Assembly (NCBI GenBank): GCA_037441385.1
Contig: JBBISH010000109.1
Location: forward strand, 1 to 21,576
Direction of reading: 5' to 3'
Origin: Myxococcales bacterium
GTDB lineage: Bacteria > Myxococcota_A > UBA9042
Length of the DNA: 21,576 bases
Made by a program: the position numbers and the translations under genes. The notes under the pieces were generated by a model. That model ran no database searches, was not told where the DNA came from, and saw nothing but the letters and a program-made list of their open reading frames with translations. Below are positions 4,616 to 18,431 of the stretch, in pieces. How positions within the stretch are numbered: position 1 is the stretch's first letter; each line of letters starts with the position of its first letter.

Positions 4616-4687
4616 CCCACCTGGGTCGCTGCGGCGCCTTGACGTCGCGGCGCTGCGTGCTTGCATGTTGGGCCGCCAGGAGGCCCC

Positions 4688-6553
4688 ATGAGCACCCCGT
4701 ATCTTGAAGAAGACGACGACCTGGACGACCGCGAGTTCGAGCCAGAGACCGACCAAGGCGCCCATCGCTACGCGCCGCAGATCGGCCCGGCTTGGGATCC
4801 GTACGAGAATCGCCCCGAAGAGCGTCACCAGGTGCTCGCGCCCCTGCTGTCGGCCGATCAGACCAACCTGCACCACGTTCCAACCGAACTGCAGGGCGGA
4901 AGCGCCGCGAGCAAGCTGGAATACCTGCTGAATCTGCCGCACCCAGCCGAGGTGGTGACGGCGTTGGCACCCGAGGAGTTCGTGTTCCTGGTCACCGAGA
5001 TCGGCAAAAGCGATGCCGCCGAGCTGCTGGCCCTGGCCTCGCCGCGGCAACTGCAGGCCTGCCTGGACCTGGACGCCTGGCACGACGACAGCCTGGACCT
5101 GGACCGCATGCTGCACTGGCTGACGGTGGCGCGCAGCGAGGGCCCCGAAGTGCTGGATCGGATGGTGGCCGCGCAAGAAGATGGCCTGCTGTGTCTGGCG
5201 CTGGGGCAAGTCCTCAAGGCCGTGCCGATCCGCGAAGAGATGGACAACGAGGTGCCGGACGACGCCGAGACCTTCGATTCGCCCGACGGCAGCTTCCGCC
5301 TGTACGGCGAGCTGGACAGCGCCAGCATGGACGGCCTGCGCGCGCTGGTGCAATCGCTGTACCGGACTGATTTGCTGCGCGGTCGTGCGGTGTTGCGGGC
5401 CCTGACCGCCGAACTGCCCAGCCAGCTCGAAGACGATCTGCTGGCGCTGCGCAACGCGCGCCTGGCCGACTTGGGGATGGTGGGCCGCGATGAAGCCCTT
5501 GAAATCTATGCCTACCGCGATCCCAATGCGTTTGCGACCGAATTGCGCGACCAGTGGCGCGGCACGGCCATGCAAACGGACCTGAACCACCTGCAGCGCA
5601 GCCCGCAACCGTACCTGCCCCTTGAGGAACAGGCGCGCCTGGGCCTGGCGCTGCGCGACCGCGATGCCGAGGGCAGCTTCTTGGGCGCCGTGTACGCCAG
5701 GCTGCCCAGCCATGTGCAAGAGCGCGTGCAAACTGGGTTGCTGCATCTGGCCTACCGGGTGCAATGCGCCCGTGCCGACACCGCAGCCGCGGTGGACGAA
5801 CTGCCGCGCTGGTCGCGCCACGCGCTGCGGACCTTGGCCATGGGCCTGCAGCACCTGTGCGACGACGATCTGGATTATGCGGCCCTGTTGCTGGCGCACG
5901 TGCCCGCCATCGAACTGTTTCGCGCTGGGCACTCGCTGGTGGTCATCGAAGTTCACCGCGCGCGGCGGCTGCGCAGCAGTTTGGGCGGCGCCGCGGGGCT
6001 GGCGCTGCTCGAACCCGAGGATGCCCGCGTGGTGGCGTCGCTTTTGGCGCGTCATCCGGCGCACGTGGTCGGCGAACTGCAGCGCCCCTTCGAGACGTTG
6101 GCCGAGCTGGCGGCAGTGCGGCTGCGCCTGCGGGCACTGACGGCGCGGGTGTCGTGGATGGCCAAGCTGGCCGCGGGCGATCTGCAGGCCCTGCTGGCGG
6201 CGCTGCCGACCAAGGAGCGTCCGCGGCTGCAAGCGCTGTTCAACACCGCGCTGGCTTGGCAGGTAGTGGCCGGCCGGCCGCAGCTGCAGCCGATGACTGG
6301 GCTGGATCTGCGCGAGTTCTTGGGCCGGGCCTTTGCCGCGGGCCGGTTGGCCGAAGAGCTGCGCGCTGGGGTAACCGCGGCCGTGCTCGCCGACATCGAA
6401 CTCACCGACGAAGTGGCGACTGCGCTTGCGGAATTCGTTGATGAGAGCTTGGATCGCTTGGCCGAGGATCTGGGCGGCCTGGCGGATGCGGCCCAGGTCG
6501 ACGTGCGCTTTGTCGGCGACGCCCTGTGGGTAACGGCCGAACTGCCGAGCTGA
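4688..6553 (+). CDS. DUF6178-like conserved deltaproteobacterial protein
   Basis: RBS AGGAGG before ATG 4688; ELLALASPRQLQACLDLDAW and RNARLADLG..EALEIY segments recalled as typical of DUF6178. Confidence 0.65.
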   Translation: MSTPYLEEDDDLDDREFEPETDQGAHRYAPQIGPAWDPYENRPEERHQVLAPLLSADQTNLHHVPTELQGGSAASKLEYLLNLPHPAEVVTALAPEEFVFLVTEIGKSDAAELLALASPRQLQACLDLDAWHDDSLDLDRMLHWLTVARSEGPEVLDRMVAAQEDGLLCLALGQVLKAVPIREEMDNEVPDDAETFDSPDGSFRLYGELDSASMDGLRALVQSLYRTDLLRGRAVLRALTAELPSQLEDDLLALRNARLADLGMVGRDEALEIYAYRDPNAFATELRDQWRGTAMQTDLNHLQRSPQPYLPLEEQARLGLALRDRDAEGSFLGAVYARLPSHVQERVQTGLLHLAYRVQCARADTAAAVDELPRWSRHALRTLAMGLQHLCDDDLDYAALLLAHVPAIELFRAGHSLVVIEVHRARRLRSSLGGAAGLALLEPEDARVVASLLARHPAHVVGELQRPFETLAELAAVRLRLRALTARVSWMAKLAAGDLQALLAALPTKERPRLQALFNTALAWQVVAGRPQLQPMTGLDLREFLGRAFAAGRLAEELRAGVTAAVLADIELTDEVATALAEFVDESLDRLAEDLGGLADAAQVDVRFVGDALWVTAELPS

Positions 6554-10513: not shown

Positions 10514-11287
10514 CTACACCTTGCTCTTGTCGCCGACGTCGACGCCAATGTCCGGAATGGCGAAGTCGTCGTCGCTGAGGCTGGGCGCCTTGAGCGCGGG
10601 CGTGGAAGCCGGCGGAACCAGACCCATCTTGGCCTTGAGCGCCAGCAGGGCGTCCGACGGGCCCTTGGTCTGTTCCAGCTTCTTGAAGCGGTCTTCCAGG
10701 CTGGCGCCCGAGATGTCGGACGAAAGCTCACCCGCCGCGGCCGCCTCGGCCTCCATCTGGTCGACCTTCTCGCTCATGCGACCAAAGGCATCAAAAGCCG
10801 AGTTGTCGTTCAGGCCGGCCATGGTGTTCTGGATGGTCTTTTGCGCCTCGGCGCGCTTGGCGCGGGCGATCATCAGATCCTTCTTGCGCTTGGCCTCGTC
10901 GATCTTCTCGTTGAGCTGGACCAGGGACGAGCGCAGCGCCTCGGCGGCCGCTTTCTGTTGCTGCCACTGGCCCTTCCATTGCTCGGCGAGCTGGGCTTCG
11001 CTCTGCTGACGGCTCAGCGCCTCTTGGGCCAGACCGTCGTCGCCGGCCTGCACCGCGAGCATGGCCTTGCGCTCCCACTCGGCGGCGTTCTGCTGCGAAG
11101 TCAGCATCTTGGCGTACAGCCGCTTCTCGTCGGCGATGGCGACGGCGACCATCTTCTTGGCCTCGATGAACTGGTCGCGCATGTCGATCAGCAGCTGATT
11201 CAGGATCTTCTCGGGGTCCTCGGCCGCGCTGACCATGGAGTTGATGTTCGAGCGCAGCAAGAGGCCGATACGGTCAAAAATGCTCAT
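10514..11287 (-). CDS. pspA: PspA/IM30 (Vipp1) family protein
   Basis: True start MSIFDRIGLLLRSNINSMVSAAEDPEKILNQLLIDM at 11287 (RBS AAGGAAAG); coiled coil; AFDAFGRMSEKVDQMEAEA; LEDRFKKLE. Confidence 0.95.
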   Translation of the reverse strand: MSIFDRIGLLLRSNINSMVSAAEDPEKILNQLLIDMRDQFIEAKKMVAVAIADEKRLYAKMLTSQQNAAEWERKAMLAVQAGDDGLAQEALSRQQSEAQLAEQWKGQWQQQKAAAEALRSSLVQLNEKIDEAKRKKDLMIARAKRAEAQKTIQNTMAGLNDNSAFDAFGRMSEKVDQMEAEAAAAGELSSDISGASLEDRFKKLEQTKGPSDALLALKAKMGLVPPASTPALKAPSLSDDDFAIPDIGVDVGDKSKV

Positions 11288-11339
11288 GATACTTTCCTTG
11301 TAGCGTAGAGTTTGCCGTGGGTTGCGGGCGGTGCCGGCA

Positions 11340-11741
11340 TTAGTCCTTGAGCAGTCCAAGCAGCTCGTCGCGGTGGTCGACGATCGCCAGGCTGAGCGAG
11401 TCGATGGCCGCCACGAACTCGTTTTGGTCCAAATTCTCCAGCTGCATGACCTCGACGGCGACGACGGAGCTGCCTTCCAGCGCGTAGGCGCCTTGCAGCA
11501 TGTCGGTGGCGTTGAGTTGCAGCAGGCGGCCGTACAGCGCCGCGCGCTTGGTGTCGCCCAGATTGGCGGGGATTTCGGCGAGCTTGACGCGGAAAACCAC
11601 CAGCGGATCGGACACATGCACCACGATTTGCGCACCGCCCCAGCTGGGGTCGTGCAGCAGCCAAGTGGTCGAGCCCGCCTGCTCCGACGGAATCTCGCTC
11701 GAAATTACGTAGTTTTCAAAATCGTCCAACGTTCGCGCCAT
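11340..11741 (-). CDS. CesT/Tir-chaperone-like (YbjN-like) protein upstream of pspA
   Basis: Start MARTLDDFENY at 11741; 133 aa and acidic; LVVFRVKLAEIP..LYGRLLQLNATDMLQGAYALEG..LENLDQNEF fits this fold; CesT-PspA operons are known. Confidence 0.75.
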   Translation of the reverse strand: MARTLDDFENYVISSEIPSEQAGSTTWLLHDPSWGGAQIVVHVSDPLVVFRVKLAEIPANLGDTKRAALYGRLLQLNATDMLQGAYALEGSSVVAVEVMQLENLDQNEFVAAIDSLSLAIVDHRDELLGLLKD

Positions 11742-11969
11742 GTCGGAGCCCCAACGCAGCTGCACCGCGCAGCCAAAAATCCGTCTGCAAACGGCGGCGA
11801 AGACCACCACGGCTCCGCCCGTGCCGCTGCCTATCCGGCGAGTGTAGGGGCGCGCTGGCCGTTTCGCAACCATGCCTTGCCCGCGCAAACACTTGGTCAA
11901 ACTTGCTGTGGGCGGGCCCGCGCAGTAGCCTGCGGCAGGCGCCGAAGGCGCGGCAAGAGGTCTGGAACG

Positions 11970-12839
11970 ATGGCAAAAGACAAAGCACGGCCCGCGACCG
12001 GCACCCGCTACGACAGAGTGCTGCTCGGGAGCGTTTGTGCCGCAATTCTAGGGAGCTGCCAGGTCGCACCTCCGCCGCCCCCGGGCCCGGTGCCGCTGGC
12101 CCAAGTGCTCGCGGCGGTCCAAAGCGAGAACAAGGCGTTCGAGGATCTCTACGCCACGGGTCCAGCTTCGGCGCAGGCATTGGGCGCCCTGAATGGCAAG
12201 CTGCAGTCCGTTGGCTACTTTCGCCGCGTGCCCACGCAGCCGGCGACCGAGTTGCTCCAAAGCGGCCTGAGGCGGCTCGCGGCGCAAAAGGGCTTGGTGG
12301 TCAAGTCGATCGAGGTTCAGGCCCCGGCCGAGCGCCCCGTGCCGCCGTCGCAGAAGTTGGCCCCCGGCGAGCGCTGGCAGCCGCAGCTGGACGACTTGCG
12401 CGGCGTGTTGCAGCTGCGCATGGATCTCGTCGGGGCGCCCAAAGACATTGCGGCGTACATCGACTCACTGCCCGAGCAGGTCGACCGTTTGGTGGTGGTC
12501 ACCGAGCGCGAGACCTTCAGCAACGGCGCGATCTTGAAGCTGGAAGCCTACTTCGAGCGGCAACTGCCGGCGCCCGAAGTGCAGGTGAGCTGGCCGACTC
12601 TGGCGGACCGGCTGCGCGCGGCAGGCTATGCCGAGGGCGATCCAGCGGTGCAGAGCGCACCGGAGTACGCCAAGCTGAAGGCCCAGGTCGAGCTTGGCCA
12701 AAAACGCCTGCCCGACGTGCGGCGCTTGGTGCAAATCAGCGCCGACTTCCCGCGCTGGTTGCTCCGTTGGCAGTTCTTTGAAGAGCGCGGCCGGGCCGAG
12801 ACCGCCGTGCACGGCAGCCAGGTCATGGGCCTGAAGTAG
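11970..12839 (+). CDS. Hypothetical lipoprotein with PilO/GspM-like domain
   Basis: Start MAKDKAR at 11970; lipobox LGS-C; LRRLAAQKGLVVKSIEV...LRMDLVGAPKDIAAYIDSL..RLVVV resembles the PilO ferredoxin-like core. Confidence 0.65.
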   Translation: MAKDKARPATGTRYDRVLLGSVCAAILGSCQVAPPPPPGPVPLAQVLAAVQSENKAFEDLYATGPASAQALGALNGKLQSVGYFRRVPTQPATELLQSGLRRLAAQKGLVVKSIEVQAPAERPVPPSQKLAPGERWQPQLDDLRGVLQLRMDLVGAPKDIAAYIDSLPEQVDRLVVVTERETFSNGAILKLEAYFERQLPAPEVQVSWPTLADRLRAAGYAEGDPAVQSAPEYAKLKAQVELGQKRLPDVRRLVQISADFPRWLLRWQFFEERGRAETAVHGSQVMGLK

Positions 12840-13138
12840 CGCTACCCACAGCAGAATCTAGAGACCAGACCAATTACAGTACACTCGTTCAGCTCTTGGA
12901 TGTTCTGGTCAGGTCTCTCGCTGCTAGGTGGGTCGCAGGCTCGCCCGGTGGTGACTCGCCGCTCCAATTCCGACGGGTCCGGCGCGGCGAAGAACTCAAA
13001 TTGATCCGCTCATATCAGTTCCGTCCGAATCGGATCGAAAACTCGGGCAATTCTCTGGGCCCGAACCGGGGTCCCCGCCTGATTCTCGCCAGTTGCACAA
13101 CGGGTCAGAAGAAGCGTATAGGCGTGAATCAGGTGGGG
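12839..13138 (+). ncRNA. Candidate highly structured non-coding RNA of unknown family
   Basis: Long hairpin 12839-12936, four-way junction 12944-13070 with three inner hairpins, long hairpin 13073-13138; G-U wobbles favour the + strand; fills a convergent intergenic gap. Confidence 0.6.
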
Positions 13139-13147
13139 TGCGTATCA

Positions 13148-14404
13148 CTAGAACTGAATCAGGACACCGCCGGTACCCGGAGCGTACTGCGGCGAGGCGG
13201 GCTGGGCGGTCGGCGCCAGGGCATAGGCGGCGGCCGAGCCACCCACCACGGCGACCACGATCGTCCAGAACCACCAGCGCTTGTAGATGGGCTTGGCCTG
13301 GACTTCGCCGGGCACGTCGGGCGCGACGATGGTGCGCGGCTTGAGGACCTCGTCGACCATCTTGTCGATCTGCTCGCGGGTCTCTTTGTCGCGATTTTCC
13401 CATTTGATGTCGCGGGTGACCTGGTTGATCACCTGGCGACTGTCCAAGTTGGCCAGCGCCATCTCGACGCGCATCTTTTCGCGGGTGCCACTGGCGCGCA
13501 GGAGCAACACGTACGGAGTGCCGGTCAGACCGCCCACCGAGCTGAGCGAATCAGGGCTGTTCTCGCCGGCCACGACTTTGATCAGGCCCTTGGCGACCGA
13601 GTCGAACGCCACTGCGCGCTGGGCGGCCTCTAGCCGCTCGTCGACGACTTGGCCGGCCTTGTCGATCGACACCTTGCGCGCCTTGCGCTTGAACCCTTGC
13701 TTGCTGATCGCGATCAGCTGGTCGCCCTTGGTCGAGGTAGCGAAGGTGGGCGTCAGGCCCATGTAGCGGCCGTTGACGTAGACGCGGGCGTTGGGCGGGT
13801 CGGTGCGGATCTCGAAGTCGACTTCTTCGCGGCCCGACACGTTCTTGCGCGCCGTGTCGAGCGCGGCCTGCGCCTTGGGCGAATATTCGGACACGTCGAG
13901 CGGCGTCTTCTGGTCGGCCTGGACCGCCTTTTCAAAGTTCTTGGCCGCGCCCTTGGGGTCGCCCGACAAGAACAGCGCCGCGCCGAGCAGCGCCATCGTC
14001 TTGGGCACTACGGTGGAGTCGCTAAGGACCGCGTAGGCAATCAGGTAGTTGCCCACGGCGTTGTCAAAGTCTTCGGCTGCGTCCTCGGCGTTGCCGGCTT
14101 TGAGCTTGGCGAGGCCAGACTTGACGAGTTGTTCGGCCGTCTTGGCACTGGACGTCTGGATTTCCTCGCCGCCCAAGTTGAGCGCGGCATCGAAATCGGC
14201 GTAGCGTACCTGCTTGCTTTTCTTCAGGGCCCGCGCCGTGTCGAAGGCGATCTCGCGCGTCGCCGCCTCTTCGGGCGACAGGTCGATCAGCGACAACAAC
14301 ATGCTGTCGTCGGCCGCAGCGGGCCGCGCCACCGTGCCGCCCAGCAGCATCAGCAGCAGCCACGCCGTGGCGCGCAACAACGCAGGTGTCCGGAGCATGG
14401 GCAT
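13148..14404 (-). CDS. PEGA-domain / TPR-like exported protein with C-terminal membrane anchor
   Basis: Start MPMLRTP at 14404 (RBS GAGGAAG); signal peptide ending AAA-DD; TPR-like helices; PEGA FEIRTDPPNARVYVNGRYMGLTP; C-terminal KPIYKRWWFWTIVVAVVGG. Confidence 0.85.
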   Translation of the reverse strand: MPMLRTPALLRATAWLLLMLLGGTVARPAAADDSMLLSLIDLSPEEAATREIAFDTARALKKSKQVRYADFDAALNLGGEEIQTSSAKTAEQLVKSGLAKLKAGNAEDAAEDFDNAVGNYLIAYAVLSDSTVVPKTMALLGAALFLSGDPKGAAKNFEKAVQADQKTPLDVSEYSPKAQAALDTARKNVSGREEVDFEIRTDPPNARVYVNGRYMGLTPTFATSTKGDQLIAISKQGFKRKARKVSIDKAGQVVDERLEAAQRAVAFDSVAKGLIKVVAGENSPDSLSSVGGLTGTPYVLLLRASGTREKMRVEMALANLDSRQVINQVTRDIKWENRDKETREQIDKMVDEVLKPRTIVAPDVPGEVQAKPIYKRWWFWTIVVAVVGGSAAAYALAPTAQPASPQYAPGTGGVLIQF

Positions 14405-14490
14405 CTTCCTCGCAGGTCCCCGCGGACGGGACCGCTGCATTGTGAGGCGAAGCGGCCGGATTGTCCAACGGATAGCCGCGGACTCGGGGA

Positions 14491-15681
14491 CTACTTCCAC
14501 GCGGTGCCTGCGTTCCACAAGCCCGAGAAGTAGGCCTTGAGGTCGCTGACCGCCTGATTGTTGCTGAACTTGGCGCCAACTTCGTGGTACGAGACAAAGC
14601 CGCCATACCCCCAGTTGTTGCTGCCCAGGACAACCGTATTGTCGACAATCAAGAACTTGGCGTGGGTCACTTGGGCGGAACTGGCCACCTTGACATCGGC
14701 TCCCAAGCTTTTCAAGTAGTTGGCCGCTGCCTGGTTGATGCTGTCGCTGCCGTCGCCGGGCTCGTAGCTCATGTCCAAGACGACCTGGACGGTAACGCCG
14801 CGCTTGACCGCCGCGCCGATCTTGCCCACGGTCTTGGTGACGACCGAGCCCGTGTCGCTGGGGTCCACGTTCATGCCGTAGGTGCAGAGTTGGATGGTGC
14901 TGCCCGACTTGGCGGCATCCAGCGCCGCCCCGGCCAGGGCCGCGTAGCCGCCATCGGCGTAAAGTGTGGCCACGGACGTGCTGCCCGAGGGCATGCTGAC
15001 GTTCAAGTTGGGCGTTTTCCAAAGCTTGTCGAGCCACGTGTGCAGTTGCCCAGTTAGACCGGCGTCGCGCACCAAGATGTTGGTCTCGTTGTTCTTCTCG
15101 ATGGACGAGCTGGACCAATTGGTCGAGCCGATGACAAAACCCTGCTCGCTGGCGACGATTTTGGCGTGGGTGCGCAGCTTGTTGCTGTCGATCATCACCG
15201 TCACACCGGCGGCTTTCAGGGTCGCCATGGTGGTCTGGTTGTAAGTAACCTCTTGATCCAGCAAGACCTTGACATCAACACCGCGGTTCTTGGCGGCGAT
15301 CAGCGCTTGCACCAGATTGTCGGGCGCGTAGCCGATGCCCGTCTCGAACTGGACGATGCGAAGCTTTTGCTGCGCGGTCTGGATGACCTCGTTGGCGCGG
15401 CTGAAGTATTTCTTGTTGGTGACGAGCTCGATGGCCGGTCCCTGCGACAGGGTACTGGCCGGCGGTTGCCCCTGAGTGTCGGCGCCGGGGGCCGGGCCGC
15501 TGTCGTCCCCGCCAGTGCCATCGGCCGTGGCGAAGCTGCCCGAATTGTTGCCCGTCGCCGCGGGACAGCCCGGCAGCAAGGCCAGCAAGAAGAGGAAGAG
15601 CAAGGCGAATCGCCGCCAGCGGGGCTGACGTGGCGAGCGATCGGACAGTGGGGAAAGTACGGAGGGGGCGGCGCGGTCCAT
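14491..15681 (-). CDS. Phospholipase D-superfamily lipoprotein (two HKD-type domains)
   Basis: Lipobox LPG-C; THAKIVASE..IGSTNWS..NNE and THAKFLIVD..LGSNNWG..YHE. Confidence 0.9.
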   Translation of the reverse strand: MDRAAPSVLSPLSDRSPRQPRWRRFALLFLFLLALLPGCPAATGNNSGSFATADGTGGDDSGPAPGADTQGQPPASTLSQGPAIELVTNKKYFSRANEVIQTAQQKLRIVQFETGIGYAPDNLVQALIAAKNRGVDVKVLLDQEVTYNQTTMATLKAAGVTVMIDSNKLRTHAKIVASEQGFVIGSTNWSSSSIEKNNETNILVRDAGLTGQLHTWLDKLWKTPNLNVSMPSGSTSVATLYADGGYAALAGAALDAAKSGSTIQLCTYGMNVDPSDTGSVVTKTVGKIGAAVKRGVTVQVVLDMSYEPGDGSDSINQAAANYLKSLGADVKVASSAQVTHAKFLIVDNTVVLGSNNWGYGGFVSYHEVGAKFSNNQAVSDLKAYFSGLWNAGTAWK

Positions 15682-16367: not shown

Positions 16368-18431
16368 CTACTCTTCGCCGCGGCCGGCGGCAGACGCCTT
16401 CTTCAGGATCTCTTTGGCCTTCTGCGCCAGCGGATCCGAGCCAAGGATCTTGTCGGCCCGCGCCGCGAGTTCCTTGGCCTTGGCCGACTGGCCGGCGGCG
16501 AGGGCTTGCTCCGCTTGCTGCAGCAGGTTCTTGCCGTCGGCTTTGCAGCCGTCGATCACGGCCTTGGCGTCGGGGTGGCTGCCGGTCGCCGAGTAGTCGT
16601 TGGCGACTTCGGCGTTCTCGACCGCTTCGCCGCAATTGCCCGCAGCGCGCGCTGCCTTGGCGGCGTTCACGTAGGCCTTGATCACCTGGTCGGTCAAGAA
16701 CGCCTTGTGGTGGCCGTCGACCTCGCTGTCCGCCTCGCGAGCGTCTTTCCAAGCGGCGCCGGCCGCCTTGCCCGAGGCACCTTGGGCCTTGTTCCACGCG
16801 GCCTCTACGCGCTTGATGCCCGCGACGTAGGCGGCCGCCTTCTTCTTTTCGTCCTTGCTGTACGGACCGTTGGCGATGGCTTCAAAGGTTTGAATCGCGG
16901 TGGACCACTGGCGCGCGCCGTAGGCCGCAAGTCCGGCCGCAAAGTCGGCCTTTTTGCCCGGCGCCGCGGCGGCTTCGGCGGGCTTGGCCTCGCCTGGTTT
17001 GACCTCAGCGGGTTTGACCTCGGCGGGTTTGACCTCGGCCGGCGGGGTGGGCACCGCGACAGGTGCCGCGGCATCCGGGCTGGCGCCCGCATCGGGGCCT
17101 GGGGCCGGCACCGGGGCCGCACCCGCGAGTTGCCCTTGGAGCATCTTGGCATCGCCGTTGTCGGGTTCGATTTCCAAGATGACCTTGATAGCCGCGTCGG
17201 CCTTGGGGCTTTCGCCGGCGGCGAGCGCCTTCTTGGCCTCTTCCAGCTTGGCGGCGACCAGCGCTTTCTTCACGTCGACGAGCAATTGGTCGGCCTCGGC
17301 GCGGAACACGGACTCCTTGCCGATGTCTTCCGAGCTGAGCTTGGCCAGCGCCTCTTCGTTGTTGCCGGCTTCCTTTGCATCTTTGCCCTCTTGCAGGGCC
17401 TTCTGCGCGGTCGCCTCTAGGCCGGCCTGACGCTTGAGCGGCGCGATCTCCGGTGCGGACTTGTCCAGCTCCTGCGCCTTCTTCAAAGTCGCCATCGCGC
17501 CGGCGAACTCCTTGTCGGCCATCTGCTTCTTGGCCTTTTCAAGGAGCGCGCCCACGTCGCCATCGGCCTCGCTTCCGGCGGCGGTCTTGTCGACGGACTT
17601 CTTGCCCATGACGAGCCAGGCGGTCACGCCGCCACCGACCAAAAGCAGGACCAGCACGGCGGCGATCGCAATGATCTTGCCGGGACCGCCGCTGCTGCCG
17701 CCCTGATTCTTGGGCGCCATGCGGGGTTCGGCGACCTGCCGCATCGGCCGATCGTCGTCGCGAGGAGCGGCGCGACCGCTCTCTTTGCGCTTGCCGACGC
17801 CGTCGACCTGATACTCGAGCACGGACATGCCGATCTCGATCTGATCGCCGGGTTCCAGGATTTGCCGGGCGCGCTTGTCGCCGTTGACCTTGGTGCCGTT
17901 GGGGCCGCCCAAGTCTTCGAGCACGACTTGGTCGCCGCTGCGGCGCAGCTGGAAGTGCTTGCGCGACACCGCTGGATCCGCGAGCACGATCTGGCAGTCC
18001 AGACCGCGGCCGACGAGCGAGTCGCCTTCACCGATGTGGTGAACCTTGCCGCGATCGGGGCCAGAGACGACCTTGAGGTCCAGGGCGCGGCCCACCGGCT
18101 GCGGCGCGCGGGCCACCGGCGCGGGCAGGTCATCGGGCATCGCGTCGAGCATGCGGGTGGCCGCTTCTTCTTCGTCGCCGTGGCCCATCGACGCGGGGGG
18201 CGGCGGTGCGGGTCGCCCCATCGGTCGCGGTGCTGGGCGGCCACCGGGGCGCGGCGCGGGCGCGGGGCTGCGCACGTATTCGGTGGGCGGCGGATCCACG
18301 TCCTCGATGGACATGGCGCGCGTCGACTCGCCGTTGTCGTCGTCGTAGTCCGCGCCGCTAGAGCGCGCCCCCGAATCGACTCTGCGCTGATTGCCAAAGC
18401 CAATGCCGCCGCGGCGGTCGTCGTTGCCCAT
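16368..18431 (-). CDS. FHA-domain transmembrane protein with periplasmic TPR-like helices
   Basis: FHA motifs VGRGLDC..DPAVSRKHF..DLGGPNGTKVNG; TM IIAIAAVLVLLLVGGGVTAWLV; Ala/Lys-rich helical repeats; RBS GAGGAG. Confidence 0.92.
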   Translation of the reverse strand: MGNDDRRGGIGFGNQRRVDSGARSSGADYDDDNGESTRAMSIEDVDPPPTEYVRSPAPAPRPGGRPAPRPMGRPAPPPPASMGHGDEEEAATRMLDAMPDDLPAPVARAPQPVGRALDLKVVSGPDRGKVHHIGEGDSLVGRGLDCQIVLADPAVSRKHFQLRRSGDQVVLEDLGGPNGTKVNGDKRARQILEPGDQIEIGMSVLEYQVDGVGKRKESGRAAPRDDDRPMRQVAEPRMAPKNQGGSSGGPGKIIAIAAVLVLLLVGGGVTAWLVMGKKSVDKTAAGSEADGDVGALLEKAKKQMADKEFAGAMATLKKAQELDKSAPEIAPLKRQAGLEATAQKALQEGKDAKEAGNNEEALAKLSSEDIGKESVFRAEADQLLVDVKKALVAAKLEEAKKALAAGESPKADAAIKVILEIEPDNGDAKMLQGQLAGAAPVPAPGPDAGASPDAAAPVAVPTPPAEVKPAEVKPAEVKPGEAKPAEAAAAPGKKADFAAGLAAYGARQWSTAIQTFEAIANGPYSKDEKKKAAAYVAGIKRVEAAWNKAQGASGKAAGAAWKDAREADSEVDGHHKAFLTDQVIKAYVNAAKAARAAGNCGEAVENAEVANDYSATGSHPDAKAVIDGCKADGKNLLQQAEQALAAGQSAKAKELAARADKILGSDPLAQKAKEILKKASAAGRGEE
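16983..17042 (-). repeat. Four in-frame 15-bp repeats encoding PAEVK x3 + PGEAK
   Basis: tttgacctc(a/g)gc(g/c)gg x3 plus cttggcctcgcctgg on the + strand. Confidence 0.9.

Follow-up and report, generated by a model that had tools for sequence, protein, structure and literature searches.

The 308-nt gap between two convergent genes in the window (the whole stretch of 21,576 nt that was analysed) is, judging from comparison with related genomes, probably a recent lineage-specific insertion in which two or more units of dispersed repeats are joined, the repeats being intergenic, non-coding and hairpin-forming, like REP/BIME, BOX or MITE elements. A sequence-only reading of this stretch had put forward a single noncoding RNA of about 300 nt with three domains, naming a small non-autonomous structured element as its third alternative, and it is this third alternative that fits the evidence best, given the empty sites in relatives and the recurrence of the units. 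The proposal of one three-domain RNA fared poorly, as the entire stretch is missing from the corresponding gap of both closest genomes and only a 123-nt sub-part of it recurs, at a different locus in the closest genome and with part of the junction's stem deleted. The insertion would be a mosaic in which a diverged unit of one repeat family (B-type) supplies most of hairpin 1 and a unit of a second family (C-type) contains hairpin 3 (Table 1).

The gap lies between the stop codon of a plus-strand gene (TAG at 12837-12839) and that of a minus-strand PEGA gene (13148-13150). The plus-strand gene had been labelled PilO-like, a label that Pfam does not support, with no family found at E<=0.01; the C-terminus of its product is intact and matches that of the closest genome. 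The G+C content is below that of the flanks, in agreement with the earlier hand count (0.597 for positions 12800-13099 versus 0.63-0.70 in the flanking sequence). Upstream of this gene, approximately 680 nt (about 11285-11963) separate the likely starts of a PspA/IM30 gene (minus strand) and the lipoprotein-like gene (plus strand), a stretch without a stop in the lipoprotein frame and about 84% identical to the closest genome, the gene starts being approximate. Elsewhere in the window, 15-nt tandem repeats run within ORFs at 361-487, 649-781, 1932-1986 and 16975-17034, located in a kinase-domain ORF region, an unnamed ORF and an FHA-domain ORF, where they probably encode pentapeptide repeats.

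Table 1. Features of the gap, its flanking genes, and copies of the B-type family in related loci; window coordinates are positions in the 21,576-nt stretch.
Feature	Sequence	Coordinates	Strand	Remarks
Upstream flanking gene, predicted lipoprotein-like, no assigned family	window	11964..12839	+	start approximate
Whole intergenic spacer, stop codon to stop codon	window	12840..13147		308 nt; lineage-specific insertion relative to L001 and L002
Hairpin 1, long imperfect inverted repeat with lower-G+C loop	window	12844..12933		z -3.62 (+), -4.20 (-)
Diverged B-type unit	window	12862..12971	+	R1 25.9 bits, model positions 10-103
"Four-way junction"	window	12944..13070		in MFE fold, weakly supported
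C-type repeat unit	window	13019..13141		element positions 180-302; includes hairpin 3 and two small hairpins
Hairpin 3, inverted repeat with 18-nt arms, within the C unit	window	13073..13138		z -4.99/-5.13
Downstream flanking gene, PEGA/TPR-domain protein	window	13148..14437	-	start approximate, C-terminus intact
B copy	L008	1623-1772	+	
B copy	L008	3061-3211	-	
B copy	L008	4546-4648	-	cut by contig end
B copy	L006	5240-5390	+	second tandem unit starts at 5380, cut by contig end
B copy	L013	2118-2268	+	
B copy	L003	5309-5450	-	

For the comparison of orthologous gaps, 25 PEGA protein homologues were aligned and 26 loci from species-representative genomes were compared, all of them from MAGs of uncultured Myxococcota or 'Deltaproteobacteria'. 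The PEGA gene was found by tblastn in 25 of the 26 loci, and the convergent lipoprotein gene adjoins it in 18 of these 25; the gap-length set leaves out L006 and L008, whose contigs end 200 and 137 nt past the PEGA stop, respectively, and L007, L010, L011, L014 and L018, which have no match to the lipoprotein gene anywhere in the locus. Stop-to-stop gaps in the 18 loci measured 0, 0, 0, 11, 13, 18, 29, 36, 47, 48, 54, 61, 61, 69, 82, 161, 163 and 195 nt, the gap of the window being longer than any of them. Whether orthologous loci lack the insert was among the checks that the sequence-only reading had proposed, and it is missing from both of the closest genomes, L001 (assembly JACRCU01, gap of 18 nt) and L002 (CAISBR01, 36 nt), whose flanking sequence can be aligned to that of the window as far as each stop codon and in which both reading frames end identically. 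Nucleotide identities in the PEGA gene (0.891 for the window and L001, 0.843 for the window and L002, and 0.857 for L001 and L002) place the window and L001 as sisters with L002 as the outgroup; absence of the insert from both relatives thus calls for one gain on the branch of the window, the alternative requiring two losses. On this sequence comparison, the 308-nt gap is a gain in the lineage of the window.

No direct repeat indicative of a target-site duplication was found at the insert junctions, and the empty site of L001 shows no clear one; the only direct repeat in 12800-13200 (12826-12835/13056-13065) lies away from the insert ends. A terminal inverted repeat is weak (8 of 10 bases complementary between 12840-12849 and 13133-13142, aligned by eye with ends that are not defined to the base), and this pair was not reported by an inverted-repeat search at seed 6.

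The C-type unit was delimited by its copy at L001 1907-2025, with which it shares 77% identity (blastn E 1.6e-21, nhmmer E 9e-14). This copy sits between an FHA-domain gene and a response-regulator gene, in a gap that measures 284 nt in L001 with the copy and about 74 nt in the window without it; each of the two sister genomes has a C unit at a site that is empty in the other. Hairpin 3 is kept in the L001 copy with its mid-stem register shifted, four bases of the closing stem of the junction are deleted, the TCGGGC/GCCCGA hairpin is mismatched, and the 291-nt region around the copy folds no better than its shuffles (z +1.31). A consensus fold of the two sequences gave the minus strand a slight advantage, reaching -30.6 kcal/mol with two compensated pairs there and -24.9 kcal/mol with none on the plus strand. 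Homology between the window and L001 upstream of 13019 was considered and rejected, its local score of 21.5 being matched by 37 of 300 shuffles. In 230 kb of related sequence, the copy in L001 was the only further C-type copy, and another copy of hairpin 1 as such was not found; nor was there a second copy of the element in the 21.6-kb window (repeat search, blastn with word size 7, and nhmmer --max) or a match to the 308 nt among 72,556 plasmid and 50,697 phage records (sensitive blastn). Downstream of the C copy, L001 1790-1906 holds two further GGTGGGGTG...GCAGG motifs, which by eye resemble the 3' ends of hairpins 1 and 3 of the window and the start of the B core, a resemblance that hints at an end motif shared by B and C units.

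The B-type family, with units of about 150 nt, came to light through weak blastn matches that positions 71-127 of the element gave in the L003, L006 and L008 gaps. It comprises six full or cut copies, plus a second tandem unit of which the beginning is seen, and its copies lie either way round with respect to adjacent genes. Three of the copies occur within one L008 contig of 4,648 nt. The second of these is cleanly inserted, adding about 140 nt that L005 and L006 lack at this site, the segments flanking it being 81-86% identical to L005 and 79-85% identical to L006. The contigs of L006 (end at 5436) and L008 (end at 4648) stop inside B copies, as is expected if such repeats break metagenome assemblies, and the ends of the B units carry a recurring CCTAAGG-like motif. 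Across the family, the 5' hairpin and the inner hairpin covary, with both-sided changes in 7 of 10 pairs of the former and in 4 of 6 of the latter, and the core between these two hairpins is nearly invariant. In the alignment, 89% of cells are paired versus 39-46% when the partners are slid, and the covariation score was reached by none of 500 shuffles, a result to be read with the caveat that the structure was derived from the same alignment. The core stem retains G-U pairs, which would be A-C on the other strand. Two further stretches that blastn matched to the L003 gap, L003 605-676 and L009 491-570, were rejected as members because the core is missing and neither nhmmer nor the covariance model recovered them.

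A covariance model of 151 positions (R1) built from the six B copies of L003, L006, L008 and L013 identified the diverged B-type unit in the window as its only non-training match with E<0.01 in 230,247 bases (rough E 1.3e-3; E 3.5e-6 within 601 nt), and nhmmer matched 12915-12970 with an E-value of 1e-3. The match to the family is modest: the 5' hairpin is kept along with the conserved core (GTGGGTCGCAGGCTCGC ... GACTCGCCGCTCC), the hairpin loop is much longer, deletions relative to the model remove the inner hairpin (helix 3), and nothing is matched beyond model position 103, the 3' third (104-151) being absent. From the extent of this match, the inner part of hairpin 1 and the start of the second domain would constitute a degenerate B unit, the core of which is paired with other partners in the minimum free energy (MFE) fold of the window. 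B-type sequence is thereby present in the lipoprotein-PEGA gap of the window, L003, L006 and L008, with the L006 copy inverted and in tandem. In L003 (5257-5346) and L009 (5256-5346) the same gap also contains a further module common to both, 70% identical across 91 nt (E about 5e-9), that carries a duplicated GGACAGGT motif and is unrelated to the insert of the window; the gap has the look of a recurrent landing site.

Both families appear to be undescribed, given that no Rfam match was obtained and that nothing was found in the literature on REP elements or MITEs of myxobacteria, as far as the text covered by a full-text search for REP elements in Myxococcus and MITEs in myxobacteria extends. 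As the sequence-only reading had supposed, the element does not belong to a known RNA family: the whole window had no Rfam 15 match at the gathering score, and at E<=10 the best matches in 12700-13300 scored 13.6-20.3 bits versus thresholds of 44.5-95, with a best E-value of 0.83. A tRNA/tmRNA scan likewise recovered neither class, and searches of six related loci against Rfam returned nothing relevant. Remnants of a retron, an integron attC site or a group II intron were rejected on the grounds that the 28 scanned ORFs had no Pfam match to a reverse transcriptase or integrase and that there was no Rfam match. Seven ORFs of at least 20 aa overlap the gap, two of them continuing into the PEGA gene in antisense or in another frame. 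That the sequence is made up of repeats and hairpins argues against a coding role for these ORFs.

The fold itself was borne out in part. Every helix listed in the sequence-only reading was located, and the MFE fold of 12839-13138 resolves into its three domains (hairpin 1, a multi-branch domain and hairpin 3), with an overall stability that none of 200 dinucleotide shuffles equalled on either strand (z -3.76 on the plus strand and -3.32 on the minus strand). The description of the element as almost fully base-paired was too generous, the MFE fold pairing 60% of bases. The four-way junction proposed for 12944-13070 does occur in the MFE fold, yet its stability is near chance (z -2.00 on the plus strand, with 5 of 200 shuffles as good, and -1.24 on the minus strand, with 25 of 200) and it is lost in the L001 copy. 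The excess stability stems from a pair of long inverted repeats, hairpins 1 and 3, both of which were recovered by the inverted-repeat search (arms 12853-12872/12906-12925, 20 nt and 80% complementary; arms 13073-13090/13121-13138, 18 nt and 89% complementary). Relative to 71 non-overlapping 300-nt windows on the plus strand (mean z -0.32, sd 1.07, minimum -3.53, from 20 shuffles each), the element falls only just within the extreme tail. The background minimum belongs to 15301-15600, inside a PLD-like gene, and was obtained from 20 shuffles only. The similarity of the fold scores on the two strands is as expected for DNA inverted repeats. G-U wobbles had been taken to favour a plus-strand transcript, an argument that fails given that the MFE structure of each strand contains seven G-U pairs (-124.6 kcal/mol on the plus strand versus -121.4 kcal/mol on the minus strand).

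The stability of the whole plus-strand fold, together with the prospect that an RNA lacking an Rfam match would be new, is what recommends a small RNA gene of its own, or an RNA processed from a 3' UTR, acquired by the lineage of the window and functional in its three-domain fold, an explanation that we nevertheless regard as unlikely. The covariation of the two B-family hairpins, the G-U pairs of the core stem and the strand preference of the B unit in the window, which folds 8.3 kcal/mol better on the plus than on the minus strand, also speak for it. However, covariation of hairpins is equally expected for DNA hairpins that are recognised by a transposase, B copies are found in both orientations relative to their neighbours, and the strand asymmetry, which amounts to -8 to -11 kcal/mol in two short B copies, is small in the five full-length copies (0.0, +0.6, -3.9, -3.4 and -1.3 kcal/mol). 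The site is moreover empty in the sister genome and the next relative, the junction domain is close to chance and missing from the only related copy, where the surrounding region shows no excess stability, and neither a promoter-like site (consensus scan for sigma-70-like promoters) nor a terminator-like site was found in the gap.

A bidirectional terminator or insulator that evolved locally for the convergent genes, rather than mobile DNA, would account for the position between convergent genes and for the placement of the long G+C-rich hairpins, the first of which begins 5 nt past the stop codon of the plus-strand gene and the other, on the minus strand, 10 nt past the PEGA stop codon. It is just as improbable as a small RNA in our estimation. 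U-tracts are absent, as had already been pointed out in the sequence-only reading, with no site of a stem plus U-tract in 12840-13147; the single terminator-like site in 12500-13500 is at 13367-13382, versus 0.9 expected by chance. Furthermore, relatives get by on gaps of 0-36 nt, one part of the element recurs in L001 between co-directional genes, which is not a terminator position, and another part matches the dispersed B family.

We hold it to be slightly less likely again that the element is ancestral and has been lost by separate deletions in L001, L002 and other lineages. B-type sequence does occupy the same gap in the same orientation in the window, L003 and L008, and a few bases at each end of the window gap are, by eye, loosely like the 18-nt spacer of L001; from its presence in the same gap of four genomes, B-type sequence could be an old resident element that has been repeatedly lost. 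Against this, at least two losses would be needed in the clade of the window, L001 and L002 versus one gain, the L006 copy differs in orientation and arrangement, the gap of L005 is 11 nt long though its PEGA gene shares 86% identity with that of L008, and the C unit occupies a different site in L001. An assembly artefact, in the form of a chimeric join or a mis-placed repeat in a metagenome contig, is very improbable: the window is apparently the entire 21,576-nt contig and related contigs do break at such repeats, but the gene order and both frame ends are intact and the flanks are continuous with L001 to both stop codons.

Under the reading that we prefer, a recent insertion of dispersed repeat units, these units would have spread as DNA, their hairpins recognised by a putative transposase or recombinase, and the gap between convergent genes would tolerate them. 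No transposase or IS was seen near any copy. Within the gap the units would be read as 3' UTRs of both genes, as each long hairpin starts 5-10 nt past a stop codon, and their effect, if any, would be exerted through hairpins that act in termination or as barriers to 3'-exonucleases, as in REP/BIME and SPRITE. From the arrangement of the hairpins, the most plausible such effect is as a barrier, at the transcript end or to exonucleases, that serves the two convergent mRNAs, and the short gaps of the relatives imply that a barrier role, if there is one, is dispensable. The three-domain fold of 300 nt would then be a by-product of the juxtaposition of units and not the selected architecture of a single RNA.

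The conserved G-U pairs of the core stem and the strand asymmetry in the short B copies leave room for a function at the RNA level. In its boldest form, which we think has a slim chance of being correct, the B and C units would be a mobile family of structured RNA modules in uncultured freshwater Myxococcota, guide-like or regulatory and linked to a transposon, and the element of the window would be a two-module composite produced from the 3' UTR of the upstream gene. The covarying hairpins and the nearly invariant core would then serve that function, and the units would travel with, or be left behind by, a transposon.

The finding would not be very surprising to a specialist. It does carry a caution in that a strong fold score combined with the absence of an Rfam match can mimic a new RNA, the patchwork of repeats that come and go being revealed by the sister genomes. 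Repeat families from MAGs of uncultured Myxococcota could additionally mark genome plasticity, explain contig breaks in those MAGs, and point to a mobilising enzyme.

Small interspersed repeats are described as over-represented between convergent genes, tightly folding and modular (excerpts of PMC3049150 and PMC3184786), and the element can be set beside several of their classes. It differs from SPRITE and other intrinsic-terminator-like repeats in that a U-rich tract follows neither of its hairpins. REP/BIME elements of enterobacteria and Pseudomonas are likewise G+C-rich imperfect palindromes arranged singly or in mosaic clusters (PMC3184786, in excerpt), and are biased to gaps between convergent genes and linked to the stability of mRNA 3' ends (excerpts of PMC3184786 and PMC3733652); a REP is 20-40 bp long and tagged on one side by GTAG or CGTC, versus hairpins of 66-90 nt and units of 120-150 nt in the element. 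The BOX element of Streptococcus pneumoniae (boxA-boxB-boxC) is similarly a composite intergenic element with separable modules, which would fold tightly if transcribed, is present or absent among relatives and is enriched between convergent genes (PMC3049150, in the portions available). It has no sequence relation to the element described here and belongs to another phylum; two or three module types are seen here, and the pairing of terminal inverted repeats with each other that is a property of BOX is weak here, as assessed by eye. In comparison with MITEs (Correia/NEMIS, RUP and ERIC), the defining terminal inverted repeats are weak, a search for target-site duplications found none, and the composition is rich in G+C and not AT-rich. 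MITEs resemble the element in being shorter than 400 bp, non-coding, highly base-paired and intergenic, and in inserting at sites that are empty in relatives (PMC3184786 and PMC3049150, both in excerpt), and the same presence or absence at orthologous sites was observed here in the gap of the window relative to L001 and L002, in the gap between the FHA-domain and response-regulator genes of L001, and at L008 3061-3211.
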